Both the position numbers and the translations under genes were made by a program. A DNA stretch of 64,000 nucleotides from positions 64,001 to 128,000 of the forward strand of contig JAZSKX010000005.1 in the NCBI GenBank assembly GCA_045535075.1, in the 5' to 3' direction. Below, in pieces: positions 5,329-55,148 of the stretch; within the stretch, counting starts at the first letter, position 1; every line of letters begins with the position of its first letter. The DNA is from Candidatus Spyradenecus sp. (GTDB taxonomy: Bacteria > Verrucomicrobiota > Verrucomicrobiia > Opitutales > UBA953). The notes under the pieces were generated by a model. That model had not been told where the DNA came from, ran no database searches, and was given only the letters and a program-made list of their open reading frames with translations.

Positions 5329-5365
5329 GCGTTCCCGTCAATTGATTTTGCGGGAACGCTTTTTT
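5329..5365 (+). terminator. Intrinsic terminator built from an inverted pair of the GCGGGAACG motif
   Basis: GCGTTCCCGTCAA-TTGAT-TTTGCGGGAACGC followed by a T-tract. Confidence 0.75.
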
Positions 5366-5449
5366 AGAGCAAAAACTATTCTTTCAAGCACGAAAAAAGC
5401 TTGCCAAGACTCACGTCAAAGCACATATTCTTGATTTTAATCCTACTTG

Positions 5450-5526
5450 GGGCGTTTAGCTCAGCTGGTTAGAGCATCTCGTTTACACCGAGAGGGTCGG
5501 GGGTTCGAATCCCTCAGCGCCTACCA
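5450..5526 (+). tRNA. tRNA-Val (anticodon TAC)
   Basis: Cloverleaf: acceptor GGGCGTT/AGCGCCT, anticodon arm TCTCG-TTTACAC-CGAGA, GGTTCGAATCC T-loop, encoded CCA. Possible promoter TTGCCA-N17-CATATT at 5401-5429. Confidence 0.95.
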
Positions 5527-5537
5527 TTTTCCGCGAT

Positions 5538-6029
5538 ATGAACAAGCACACAGTCTCCGCTCTTGTTGAAAATAAATTTGGCGTTCTTGCCCGCGTCTCC
5601 GGTATGCTCAGCGGTCGCGGTTTCAACATCGAAACTTTGAATGTCGCTCCGACGCACGATCCGAATATTTCCCGTATCACGGCTACAATTATCGCAGACG
5701 ACGAATCGTTGAATCGTTGTATCCGCCAGTTGGATAAGCTTGTCAATGTTATCACGGTTCAAAATTTTGACGGTGTTGACTTCGTTGCTCGGGAACTCGT
5801 TATGGTCAAGGTCAAAGTCAACCGCCAGACGCGCTCCGAAATCTTAGAAATCGTCGGCATCTTCCGCGCTCAAGTCATTGATGTTTCCCTCGAAAGTCTT
5901 ATTATCGAATTCACGGGCAACAAAAATAAGATTAACGCCTTAATGAAGCTTTTGAACAATTACGAAATCATCGAAATGGCGCGCACGGGAACGCTCACGC
6001 TTGAGCGCGGTGCCAATTCCTGCAAATAA
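5538..6029 (+). CDS. ilvN: Acetolactate synthase small (regulatory) subunit
   Basis: ACT domain LVENKFGVLARVSGMLSGRGFNIETL; C-terminal IEMARTG. Confidence 0.95.
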   Translation: MNKHTVSALVENKFGVLARVSGMLSGRGFNIETLNVAPTHDPNISRITATIIADDESLNRCIRQLDKLVNVITVQNFDGVDFVARELVMVKVKVNRQTRSEILEIVGIFRAQVIDVSLESLIIEFTGNKNKINALMKLLNNYEIIEMARTGTLTLERGANSCK

Positions 6030-6051
6030 TTTACTCTATTCATAATACATC

Positions 6052-7140
6052 ATGGCTACGAAAAAAGCTCCTGCTAAGAAAACGACGAAAGCCCCTGCAG
6101 CAACGGCAAAAAAATCCTGCTGCAAAAAAGCTTGCGCAAAGAAGACGGCTCCCAAAGCTATCAAAATTTACCACGACAAGGATGTCGATGACTCTGTTTT
6201 GAAGGGCAAGACGATTGCCGTTATCGGCTACGGTGCACAAGGTCGCGCGCAGGCGCTCTGCCTTCGCGACAGCGGCGTGAACGTCATCATCGGTGTTCGC
6301 AAGGGAAAATCCTTCAAGGCGGCGAAAGCTGACGGTTTTGAAACTCTCGCAGTCGACAAAGCTGCGAAGAAAGCGGATATCATCCACATTCTTCTCCCGG
6401 ACGAAAGCCACAAGAAGGTTTACGCGGAAGAAATCGCAAAGTACGTCACGCCGGGCAAAACGCTCTGCTGCTCGCACGGCTTTGCTTATGTCTTCAAAAA
6501 TATTGTTCCGCCGGCGGATGTCGACGTCATCATGGTTGCCCCGAAAGGTCCGGGAACGGAAGTGCGTCGCGTCTTCGAAGAAGGCTTCGGTTGCCCGGGT
6601 CTTGTTGCCGTTTTCCAAGATGCCAGCGGGAACGCGATGCAAACTGCGCTCGCAATCGCCAAGGGCGAAGGCCTTACGCGCGGCGGGGTTCTCGAATGCA
6701 CGATGGAACAGGAAACCTACGAAGATCTTTTCGGCGAACAGAATGTTCTCTGCGGCGGCATCGTTGACTTGATGAAATACGGCTTTGAAACGCTTGTTGA
6801 AGCCGGCTATCCGGACGAAATGGCATATTTCGAATGCGTCCACGAAGCGAAACTCATCGTTGACATCATTTACAACAAGGGAATCGCGGCGATGAACGGC
6901 GTTATCTCCAACACGGCAGAATTCGGCGAATATTACAACGGACCGAAAATCATCACGCCGGATGTTAAGAAGCGTATGAAAGAATCCCTGAAGCGCATCG
7001 AAAGCGGCGAATTCGCAAAAGCTTGGATGCGGGAAGCCTCCAAGGGAGCTCCGACGCTCGCGAAGAAACGCGAACAGCTTTCCAAGCACCGCGTCGAAAT
7101 CGTCGGCGAAAAAATCCGCAAGCTTTTCGAACGCAAATAA
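6052..7140 (+). CDS. ilvC: Ketol-acid reductoisomerase with Lys/Ala-rich N-terminal extension
   Basis: IGYGAQGRAQAL, MVAPKGPG, DLFGEQ, AYFECVHE, ISNTAEFG motifs. Confidence 0.97.
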   Translation: MATKKAPAKKTTKAPAATAKKSCCKKACAKKTAPKAIKIYHDKDVDDSVLKGKTIAVIGYGAQGRAQALCLRDSGVNVIIGVRKGKSFKAAKADGFETLAVDKAAKKADIIHILLPDESHKKVYAEEIAKYVTPGKTLCCSHGFAYVFKNIVPPADVDVIMVAPKGPGTEVRRVFEEGFGCPGLVAVFQDASGNAMQTALAIAKGEGLTRGGVLECTMEQETYEDLFGEQNVLCGGIVDLMKYGFETLVEAGYPDEMAYFECVHEAKLIVDIIYNKGIAAMNGVISNTAEFGEYYNGPKIITPDVKKRMKESLKRIESGEFAKAWMREASKGAPTLAKKREQLSKHRVEIVGEKIRKLFERK

Positions 7141-7156
7141 GCATTCGTTAATACGG

Positions 7157-7197
7157 AAAAATTCCCGCGTGATTGCTTTTACGCGGGAATTTTTTTT
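7157..7197 (+). terminator. Intrinsic terminator after ilvC (motif-variant stem)
   Basis: AAAAATTCCCGCGT...ACGCGGGAATTTTTTTT. Confidence 0.8.
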
Positions 7198-7234
7198 GTT
7201 ATAAATAATAAAGTTTCAATTCACGTCTATTATC

Positions 7235-53367: not shown

Positions 53368-53395
53368 GCCTCACTAAAAAATTCTGATTTTTAGA

Positions 53396-53455
53396 GAAGG
53401 AACCGGCAAACTTCGAGTTTTGTTCAATCAAAGCTCAAAACGTTTGCCGGTTTTC
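53396..53455 (+). terminator. Long hairpin after argB, probable terminator
   Basis: AACCGGCAAAC (53401-53411) / GTTTGCCGGTT (53442-53452) with inner GAGTTTTG/CAAAGCTC. Confidence 0.55.
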
Positions 53456-53472
53456 GTTTGTCGTTAAAATTC

Positions 53473-53498
53473 TGAAACTTTTTCGAGTAAAAAACGTT
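53473..53498 (+). promoter_or_regulatory. Putative ECF-sigma autoregulatory promoter
   Basis: TGAAAC-N16-CGTT just upstream of the ECF sigma start codon. Confidence 0.6.
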
Positions 53499-53512
53499 TT
53501 AAAATCCGAAGC

Positions 53513-54061
53513 ATGAACGACAACGAAACGGATATTCTGTTGATGCGAAAAATCGCCGCAGGCGACATGACTGCGGCGCGCGTGCTTGTACTCAAATGGC
53601 AAAAACCGCTCATTAACTTTTTTTACCGCTCGCTCAACAACGTTCATTCCGCCGAAGATCTCGCGCAACAAACCTTCGTAAATCTTCTCCGGAATGCCGA
53701 TAAATACACGCCCGAAGCAAGTTTCCCCGCCTATCTTTTTCATATCGCACACAACATTCTCATCAGCGATTTCCGCAAGCGTTCCCGTAGAAACGCCGAA
53801 CCGACGGATCCCGCAGAGCTTCCGGCTGTCGCCGACGATGCCGATCCCGTCAATCAAAACGAATTGAAAAAATCCTTCGCGGAAGCAGTCGAAAAACTTC
53901 CCGAAAACCATCGAACCGCGATTTTGCTTTTCTGCCAGCAGGAACTCTCCTACACGGAAATTGCAGAAACCATGGACACGAGCGTATCCAACGTTAAAAA
54001 CTGGGTTCATCGAGCCCGCCAAGCACTGAGAAATTCTCTTTCGGCTTTCCTCGAGCATTAA
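53513..54061 (+). CDS. ECF RNA polymerase sigma factor
   Basis: AEDLAQQTF, FPAYLFHIAHN region 2; LSYTEIAE...VKNWVHRAR region 4. Confidence 0.92.
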   Translation: MNDNETDILLMRKIAAGDMTAARVLVLKWQKPLINFFYRSLNNVHSAEDLAQQTFVNLLRNADKYTPEASFPAYLFHIAHNILISDFRKRSRRNAEPTDPAELPAVADDADPVNQNELKKSFAEAVEKLPENHRTAILLFCQQELSYTEIAETMDTSVSNVKNWVHRARQALRNSLSAFLEH

Positions 54062-54106
54062 AAAATGAAACATTTTCACCGTAAAGCAGTTAGAAACAAT
54101 AGCACT

Positions 54107-54571
54107 ATGAACAAAAAATCCGCACAACACACGGACTTGGACGCCCTTCTGGCGGAAATGCCGGTCGAGCCGAGCAAAGGTTTTGCCGAACGCGTGCTTG
54201 CTGATTGCAAAATCGAAAAACTCCTGCAGGAAATGCCGCTTGAGCCTCAAAAAGAATTCGCAGAAGAAACGCTCACTGTAGCAAGACGTTCCCGCAGGAC
54301 ACGCGCCAATTTCTTTCATTGGATTCACTTTGCCGCAGCCGCCGGAGTCGCCGCCGTTTCTGCCGTGTTCCTCTGGGAAACAAAACCCGCCCACAACGCG
54401 GAAACCGCATGGATTTCACGCATCGAACAAACGGTTCAAAACGATCCCGAACTTTCCCTCCTCGCTCAAACGGAAGACGATTCGCTCCTCTTTGACGAAT
54501 TACTGAGCACATCCGAAATTCTTTCAAGCATCGACCCTTCGGTCTTAGAAATCTTCGCCTACAATGATTAA
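54107..54571 (+). CDS. Putative membrane-anchored anti-sigma factor
   Basis: Directly downstream of the ECF sigma; cytoplasmic P...F..R/E helical motif, one TM (FAAAAGVAAVSAVFLW). Start is 54107 or 54065. Confidence 0.65.
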   Translation: MNKKSAQHTDLDALLAEMPVEPSKGFAERVLADCKIEKLLQEMPLEPQKEFAEETLTVARRSRRTRANFFHWIHFAAAAGVAAVSAVFLWETKPAHNAETAWISRIEQTVQNDPELSLLAQTEDDSLLFDELLSTSEILSSIDPSVLEIFAYND

Positions 54572-55115
54572 AAAATACGCACTTTTCCTCGTCGCCCTTC
54601 TCACGTCTTTTTCCGGCGGAATTATTTTCGCAACGGAAGAGAAAAAAACAAACGCTCCTCTCGACGTTCCCGCAGGAGAAAAAGCCGACGCGAAGCATTG
54701 CACAAAAAAAGTCTCCCGAAAAGACATTCGCATGCTGAAAACCCTTTTTCTCATGTCGGACAAAGAACTTGCGCGTATGCGGGAACTCATTACAAAGTTG
54801 GAACGCACTCCGGAAGCCAAACGCCGAGAAATGGCGGAAAATCTCGAACGCGCAAACTCCGACGATCCGAACGTTCGACGCGAGTTCATGGAAACGATGC
54901 GCCGGCGCTTCGAAGCCCGACGCAAAAACCTCCTCGCCCGCTACTATGCGACGCTCCCGCAGGAACAGGCGAAATCCGAAGCCGAAGCCTTTCTCAAGAT
55001 GTCGAGGCATGAGCAGTTTGAATACATAAAATCCGTTCGGGAAAAACTCGGACTTCCGCCGCATCCCCGCAAAGAGAAAAAAGCGGAAGTCAATAAAGCC
55101 GCCGAGACGCAATAA
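54564..55115 (+). CDS. Exported helical charged protein (DUF3106-like) of the ECF operon
   Basis: Signal peptide; repeated LP/TPExR-type helices; overlaps the anti-sigma stop. Confidence 0.55.
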   Translation: MIKKYALFLVALLTSFSGGIIFATEEKKTNAPLDVPAGEKADAKHCTKKVSRKDIRMLKTLFLMSDKELARMRELITKLERTPEAKRREMAENLERANSDDPNVRREFMETMRRRFEARRKNLLARYYATLPQEQAKSEAEAFLKMSRHEQFEYIKSVREKLGLPPHPRKEKKAEVNKAAETQ

Positions 55116-55148
55116 AAAGCGTTCCCGCGAAATAATTCACGGGAACGC
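55116..55148 (+). terminator. Hairpin from an inverted motif pair after the ECF operon
   Basis: GCGTTCCCGCGAA-ATAA-TTCACGGGAACGC. The A-tract on the left could terminate the minus-strand operon. Confidence 0.7.

Follow-up and report, generated by a model that had tools for sequence, protein, structure and literature searches.

A stretch of 64,000 nucleotides from Candidatus Spyradenecus sp. (the window, positions 1 to 64000) carries a series of hairpins whose arms are one short word and its reverse complement, and this raises the question of what the hairpins do and why a single word supplies so many of them. The word is the asymmetric 8-mer CGGGAACG; CGTTCCCG is the opposite-strand arm in the pairs. 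The host genome (G000; 1.95 Mb, Opitutales, 99% complete) belongs to a genus of uncultured gut bacteria, probably Ca. Spyradosoma by its IlvC, whose nearest named relatives come from animal guts and bear the labels Opitutales, Ca. Spyradosoma or Ca. Spyradenecus; a 16S search of G000 gave no hit. The hairpins are very probably intrinsic terminators, as predicted from their position, folding and tails, and are clearly selected as RNA. The word is in addition conserved at synonymous sites beyond protein constraint. On balance, and with some reservation, it is probably a DNA uptake sequence-like tag, with uptake as the putative driving force.

Word pairs and predicted terminators

Pairs were counted with spacers of 0–20 nt. 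In G000, 171 pairs have the order CGTTCCCG..CGGGAACG and 26 the reverse. Intergenic positions are taken by 148 of the 171, where ~15 are expected by chance, nearly all of them at gene 3' ends (60 in convergent, 87 in tandem and 1 in divergent gaps), while only 8 reverse-order pairs are intergenic. An earlier interpretation of the window from its letters (the sequence-only reading) had proposed that the hairpins are intrinsic terminators built from an inverted word pair, nearly always in one order; both proposals are supported genome-wide. The CGTTCCCG..CGGGAACG order is the commoner in all 19 genomes of the genus, with ratios from 15:0 to 160:120. Within genes, both opposed orders lie under expectation at distances below 100 nt (0.38–0.87).

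The genome-wide count that the same reading had suggested was made with a home-made finder, which requires a hairpin and a U-tract at a gene end with a gap of at least 30 nt, on home-made gene calls (1,599 genes, 87% coding, in agreement with profile hits inside the window). It predicts 370 terminators at 1,047 gene ends: both arms are exact in 154, up to 2 mismatches per arm occur in 47, the order is reversed in 13, and the remaining 156 bear no relation to the word. Thus 201 of the 370 are motif-built when up to 2 mismatches per arm are allowed, and at least one exact arm is found in 182 (49%). With two-way hairpins counted once (n = 305), the four classes comprise 124, 37, 13 and 131 hairpins, respectively. 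The motif hairpins have a median stability of −21 kcal/mol and lie ~24 nt past the stop codon.

Both the tails and the pairing inside the stem follow the direction of transcription, and for this reason the hairpins are considered to act as RNA. In one-way gaps (n = 80) there are 5.9 T of 8 after the hairpin and 3.7 A of 8 before it, whereas in convergent gaps (n = 59) the values are 5.7 T after and 5.3 A before. The first base inside the core, read in the transcribed direction, forms a U·G pair 40 times and a C·A combination 7 times in one-way gaps (p 1e-6), compared with 21 and 15 times in convergent gaps; the next two core positions lean likewise (14 vs 6 each), which is not significant. In one shallow RNA run, available as contigs, no listed contig reaches a motif hairpin.

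The loops had been described as unrelated. This is right for most of them, as 135 distinct spacers occur among the 148 pairs, with a length peak at 12 nt (53 of 148), but the innermost 2–3 letters are set by the flank of the word itself, so that spacers tend toward (C/T)GA...(T/C)(C/T)(G/A), and two loops in the window (26314 and 55119) are nearly identical.

Hairpins in the window

All nine hairpins described in the sequence-only reading are present. Folding gives one stem-loop for each, with energies between −18.6 and −32.5 kcal/mol (z from −3.9 to −10.3), and none of 200 shuffles was as stable (13 strands folded). The features are:

5329..5365, plus strand: motif-pair terminator, GCGTTCCCG, 13 nt, CGGGAACGC and T6, 44 nt past the stop of a PEP-CTERM protein gene (4385-5284); a tRNA (5450-5523) is next
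7157..7198, plus strand: ilvC terminator with the word shortened in both arms (TTCCCGCG/CGCGGGAA)
10509..10545, plus strand: terminator downstream of gene 8466-10484, its word degenerate and its arms in the rare reversed order (CCGGGAGCA/TGTTCCCGG)
20934..20970, unstranded: bidirectional terminator between the convergent DASS symporter and RNase HIII genes; only TCCCGC/GCGGGA is common with the word
26314..26341, unstranded: motif-pair hairpin in the gap where genes 25444-26268 and 26371-27255 converge; CGTTTCCG forms one of the arms
30575..30610 (hairpin 30583-30602), unstranded: bidirectional motif-pair terminator between gene 27475-30540 and gyrA
42191..42234 (hairpin 42200-42225), plus strand: motif-pair terminator 21 nt past aspS
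48541..48580 (hairpin 48546-48573), plus strand: motif-pair terminator 18 nt past tig
55119..55148, minus strand: motif-pair hairpin between convergent genes, of which the minus-strand ABC ATPase gene 55283-56086 alone is provided with a U-tract
4597..4612, unstranded: zero-spacer pair CGTTCCCGCGGGAACG, a 16-bp palindrome inside coding sequence, not a terminator
1..64000, both strands: dispersed CGGGAACG copies, 89 on plus and 93 on minus (n = 182)

The shortened stem at 7157 and the reversed, degenerate one at 10509 are present as described. The variant at 20934 does form a hairpin, but it is too far from the 8-mer for the classifier to count it as motif-built. The 'one mismatch' noted at 26314 is a U·G pair on the plus strand. 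Flanking A/T tracts had been stated for most of the hairpins; at 55119-55148 the U-tract is one-sided. The window holds 6 exact CGTTCCCG..CGGGAACG pairs, one of them the intragenic palindrome at 4597, and no reversed one, where 2.7 are expected per order, a weak statistic at this scale. The only RNA family detected in the window by Rfam is one tRNA.

The ilvC hairpin is motif-built in 15 of 15 genus loci and exact in 12, while that of two Akkermansia loci is not motif-built. As a separate observation, beyond the genus the closest IlvC relatives carry the labels Akkermansia and Victivallaceae, not those of other Opitutales, in a search that finds close relatives only, hinting at transfer of ilvC among gut bacteria of the Planctomycetes-Verrucomicrobia-Chlamydiae group. 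At 42326-43219 the window also encodes a 297-aa protein with a DUF6923 repeat hit, lying under the deepest contig of RNA run X2 there (depth 97); this contig ends at 43248, by a motif-free hairpin (one run, contigs only).

Abundance and distribution of the word

In G000 the word is found in 5,159 copies (2.65/kb), where an order-2 Markov model based on trinucleotides predicts 268. Genes hold 84% of the copies (4,320), spread over all six frames. The tripeptides VPA and AGT are the most enriched (5-fold), compared with 1.0 for their reversals APV and TGA. The flank preference is short, with Y at −3 and −2, G/A at −1, C at +1 and none beyond, giving a full word (Y)(Y)RCGGGAACG(C). Copies are spaced more evenly than at random (148 gaps below 30 nt vs 319 expected). 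They show no replication polarity, the leading-strand share being 0.548 vs 0.555 in letter-permuted controls. Enrichment is confined to the genus: all 19 of its genomes have 552–7,777 copies vs 74–159 for the reversed control, and in high-density relatives the density reaches ~4.5/kb, whereas the other four genera of the family (118 genomes) have 25–383 copies, near or below control. The word CGGGAACG itself was not found in print in a literature search limited to open-licence papers.

The density is low in ribosomal protein genes and in two prophage-like regions (0.57 and 0.75/kb). The latter, G000:C16:183000-221500 and G000:C8:20000-36000, appear Mu-like by reading of their gene starts and have a motif density 4- to 5-fold lower; the C16 region carries two adjacent D12 adenine methylase genes. 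Among viral contigs, 38 loci with the paired pattern were inspected and none was motif-rich.

Several other sequence features of G000 were recorded. Strong leading-strand polarity is shown by GAGCAGGG (116:4), GGGCAGGG (49:2) and GGGAAGGG (55:6), words of the GRGNAGGG type, in G000 and also in G013; these are probably the FtsK-orienting polar sequences (KOPS) of the lineage. The genome strongly avoids GGCC (0.17 of expectation), and also CTCGAG, CTAG, GATC and GTAC. Adjacent genes at G000:C1:103002-104215 look like cas2 and cas1 from their N-termini alone.

Order of the arms

Among distinct hairpins the order ratio is 124:1. An A-rich flank from which the tail derives is held responsible for the order bias in Neisseria and Pasteurellaceae (PMC1852404, in extract). 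This account cannot apply here, because the A/T run occurs only beside paired copies, while the 4,312 coding copies are flat in composition there. For the same reason, the extended consensus AAAAGCGTTCCCGC put forward in the sequence-only reading is not supported and reflects only the terminator tail; it has 78 copies, 15 of them within genes.

Two asymmetries account for part of the bias. Coding copies avoid A at −2 (6%) and −3 (15%) and tolerate T from +2 onward, and a tail fits one side of the word 2- to 5-fold better. Outgroup terminators, which almost never contain the word, lean toward CCC in the 5' arm (20 vs 9), a generic arm bias of ~2-fold. Together these give perhaps a ~10-fold preference, short of 124:1, and the remainder may come from inheritance of ancestral terminators.

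Retention of the word as DNA

Of the 182 hairpins with at least one exact arm, 154 are exact in both, compared with 54 of 113 motif-free stems that are fully Watson-Crick (wobble-free) over 8 bp, a comparison somewhat biased by classing on the motif. A stem needs pairing only, yet both arms stay exact, and on this ground the word is taken to be kept at the DNA level. In genes, a comparison with high-density relatives (146 gene pairs) showed no change at 634 of 727 four-fold third positions of the word, vs 404 expected from matched codons.

Uptake as the putative driving force

Under the proposed mechanism, the type IV pilus/ComEC system would favour word-bearing DNA for import, and repeated uptake and recombination would raise its number wherever it is tolerated. 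Terminator stems would tolerate it best, as a single pair there meets the needs of RNA folding and of the DNA signal alike, and opposed pairs would be eliminated within genes but preserved at their ends. The fixed order would likely follow in part from the disfavour of A 5' of the word, which leaves the tolerant 3' side facing the U-tract. The sequence-only reading held that the hairpins independently support uptake, which is overstated: any very abundant asymmetric GC-rich word supplies hairpins, so terminator use is not independent proof. It shows retention at the DNA level, not which protein reads the word, and is an expected consequence of such a word and not a new mechanism.

The machinery encoded in G000 includes two PilB, PilT, PilC, a PilM-like protein, a secretin, 7 prepilins, ComEC, DprA and ComF, and the type IV pilus is of the Akkermansia type. 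A stand-alone, single-copy 141-aa pilin (L104:2027-2452, G000:C5:99026-99451) is matched over its full length in all 19 genus genomes (46–91%), but only partially and weakly in the 82 other genomes of the family; it is a candidate reader of the word or the major pilin. A search of a protein atlas returned only unnamed clusters for it.

A number of observations weigh against uptake as the driving force. The pilin is not basic (mature isoelectric point 5.8), has no significant fold match in the PDB, presumably resembles ordinary Opitutae pilins, and may simply be the major pilin. No ComEA was found above the curated cut-off in 53 family genomes, the best hits being ~800-aa frames that appear to be Tex-like. 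ComEC is present in 82 of 85 family genomes and hence does not track the word; the low-density genomes examined carry intact copies of ComEC, DprA and the 141-aa pilin, and RecBCD tracks the genus as closely as the word does. No extended A/T flank of the kind known from uptake signal sequences (USS) was found at CGGGAACG. The paired terminator copies amount to ~6% of all CGGGAACG copies, and the order bias is explained only in part.

In the literature searched, sequence-specific uptake tags and their use in terminator stems are described only in Neisseriaceae and Pasteurellaceae. If uptake is indeed the force, the genus would represent a third, independent origin of uptake tags, in Verrucomicrobiota and at higher density, and the word could be used for transforming these gut bacteria once they are cultured.

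Alternative explanations

The word could instead be a target inside the cell other than that of RecBCD (for a methyltransferase, a repair bias or a nucleoid protein), as for the cyanobacterial highly iterated palindrome (HIP1), with terminators co-opting it for its abundance. This explanation, which we regard as rather unlikely, agrees with one copy per 380 bp, mostly coding and evenly spaced, and with the failure to find ComEA; the HIP1 octamer, for its part, reportedly raises transformation in a methylation-dependent manner. However, CGGGAACG is not its own reverse complement, and no methyltransferase family is shared by the high-density genomes in a survey of four families in 5 genomes each: the C5 enzyme occurs in 3 of 5 but not in high-density G004, N6/N4 in 3 of 5 but not in G000, and the MmeI-type and D12 enzymes in 2 of 5 each, with the D12 genes of G000 in a prophage-like region. 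A still less probable alternative is a Chi site, at which RecBCD would stop degrading incoming double-stranded DNA, so that carrier DNA recombines more and drive spreads the word; in that case CGTTCCCG..CGGGAACG is the arm order expected to withstand resection from either side. The word is an asymmetric 8-mer like E. coli Chi, and RecBCD tracks the genus: RecC was detected in all 18 genus genomes searched vs 4 of 44 others in the family (those weak), a second, RecBCD-type RecD in 16 of 16 vs 3 of 25, and the RecC of G000 is a clear relative of the E. coli protein. Short N-terminal RecC patches, which we take to be Chi-contacting, are conserved across the genus. The E. coli-type recC, recB and recD genes (L110:1602-5045 and L111:2407-7328) occur across the genus and are mostly not found in the rest of the family, which suggests a gain at the genus base or loss elsewhere; their co-occurrence with the word is one phylogenetic event. 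RecC is intact in a clade that has lost most copies of the word (see below), where 8 of 219 invariant columns are changed, none of them in the presumed Chi-contacting patches, and G111 has divergent RecBCD genes, yet no hyperabundant 8-mer in the 200 kb sampled. Depletion within genes is stronger for opposed pairs than for same-strand ones and differs little between the two opposed orders, contrary to a directional signal. The word also lacks leading-strand polarity, although the same test detects the polar GAGCAGGG; polarity is a standard criterion for Chi, though not a universal one (10.1101/2020.08.13.249359, in extract). Its excess, 5,159 vs 69, compares with 1,008 observed vs 151 expected for E. 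coli Chi (PMC1939737, in extract). Should the Chi explanation nevertheless prove true, which is improbable, biased recombination would have driven the word to one per 220–380 bases without polarity, rewriting proteins and half of the terminators, and a genomic signature held diagnostic of uptake sequences could come from a DNA-repair enzyme.

Two further explanations start from the hairpin and fare worse. According to one, very improbable, a preference at the RNA level fixed one stem, and codon usage produced the remaining copies as a side effect. Selection of the hairpins as RNA is clear, and the lean of outgroup terminators toward CCC in the 5' arm points the same way, but those terminators almost never carry the word, wobble and compensatory changes that would spare the RNA stem are rare in the core, and the explanation is largely refuted by the coding copies (84%, in all six frames) and the conservation of synonymous sites within the word. 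The other, which has next to no probability, is a family of repetitive extragenic palindromes (REP) or miniature inverted-repeat transposable elements (MITE) spread by a RAYT/TnpA transposase. The sequence-only reading had suggested looking for such a gene, and G000 does have two IS200-type Y1 transposase genes; the spacer peak at 12 nt would also suit a repeat family. These transposases, however, are flanked by palindromes of their own, CAGGT..ACCTGC(A/G)G, which are unrelated to the word. Spacers are mostly distinct, there is no flanking duplication of 3 nt or longer (a 2-nt excess, 12 vs 3.8, may reflect the A/T flanks), the ilvC hairpin stands at the same place in all 15 genus loci with differing loops, and single copies exceed paired ones by ~16:1. 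The REP/MITE explanation is for practical purposes refuted, and the statement that the hairpins are not copies of one transposed element is upheld.

The Y1 loci themselves (L112:1-1100 on G000:C10 and L113:700-1400 on G000:C14), one of which has a tandem array of ~144-nt units, look like RAYT/REP loci unrelated to the 8-mer.

Decay of the word in a nested clade

Genomes G001, G002 and G013 have about one quarter of the G000 density. In a quick RecC tree (SH-aLRT 95–100, one gene) they form the sister group of G000, nested among high-density genomes, and for this reason loss of the word is the simpler reading. The clade keeps the word at 61 of 341 aligned coding sites, whereas more distant high-density relatives keep it at 233 of 369. 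It retains 73–74 pairs vs 155, and all 46 pairs in 1.38 Mb of G013 have an A or T tract. With ~3/4 of the copies but only ~1/2 of the terminator pairs lost, the clade is a natural experiment in which persistence of such words by drive could be told from persistence by selection.

A driver of the decay was sought by comparing the G000 proteins with 1.38 Mb of low-density G013 (~65% of the genome) and with loci of the G001 clade. Synteny gaps between G000 and the low-density genomes revealed no convincing lost gene, prepilin counts (7 or 10–11) do not track density, and neither the 1.38 Mb of G013 nor 87 kb of G014 showed a replacement word. A 132-aa protein of TfoX-like appearance lacks a match in Pfam and NCBIfam; as searches of 4 low-density and 5 high-density genomes did not find it, it was rejected as the driver. 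As side observations, G014 has the lowest motif count (552 copies) and its 87 kb sampled are dominated by a CACCACCAAC-type repeat, while imperfect tandem heptamer repeats (AAAGATT/AGAGCTT) are expanded in G013, with 355 hits in 1.38 Mb vs 74 in G000 (loci such as L167, L186 and L249). The latter resemble the heptamer arrays found near four-helix-bundle genes.

Comparison with known systems

REP/RAYT elements are likewise intergenic GC-rich hairpins downstream of genes, but here there is no conserved loop family, most copies are single and coding, and the Y1 transposases have other flanking palindromes. With E. coli Chi (GCTGGTGG) the word shares the asymmetric octamer, the enrichment in the core genome and RecBCD, present throughout the genus; it differs in the lack of leading-strand polarity, in being ~12x denser and in its concentration as inverted pairs in terminators. 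Cyanobacterial HIP1 (GCGATCGC) is also a very dense, largely genic octamer, and is linked to transformation. It is, however, a palindrome read by the DmtA/DmtC methylases, whereas the present word is asymmetric and pairs into terminators, and no methylase of the families sampled is common to the genomes sampled.

Pasteurellaceae USS (AAGTGCGGT) resembles the word in its short core, its use in terminators, the enrichment of motif-encoded tripeptides and the scarcity in recently acquired genes (PMC2817400, in extract). The long A/T-rich extension of USS has no counterpart here, and the tripeptide enrichment is ~2-fold there vs ~5-fold here. At least one exact copy is found in 16–29% of predicted terminators in Pasteurellaceae and in 54–57% in Neisseria (PMC1852404, in extract), so that the share of 49% observed here is ~2x that of USS.

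A close parallel in terminators is the DNA uptake sequence (DUS) of Neisseriaceae (GCCGTCTGAA), also an asymmetric word with thousands of copies on both strands. The terminators built from inverted pairs in Neisseria and Haemophilus, which the sequence-only reading had invoked, are a real parallel: as in the extract of PMC1852404, inverted pairs occur in about half of the predicted terminators, with a strong order bias, directional tails and few pairs within genes. The differences are that the sequence is unrelated and the phylum another one, that the core here has 8 nt at 2.65/kb and up to ~4.5/kb in relatives, and that 84% of copies are coding vs 34.5% in DUS (PMC2817400, in extract). For DUS the order is credited to a tail-supplying AAAT flank (PMC1852404, in extract), which the coding copies here do not have. 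No ComP-like reader or ComEA was found in the genomes searched here, and uptake is putative. In terminators the word works like DUS, and it is a candidate member of that class.

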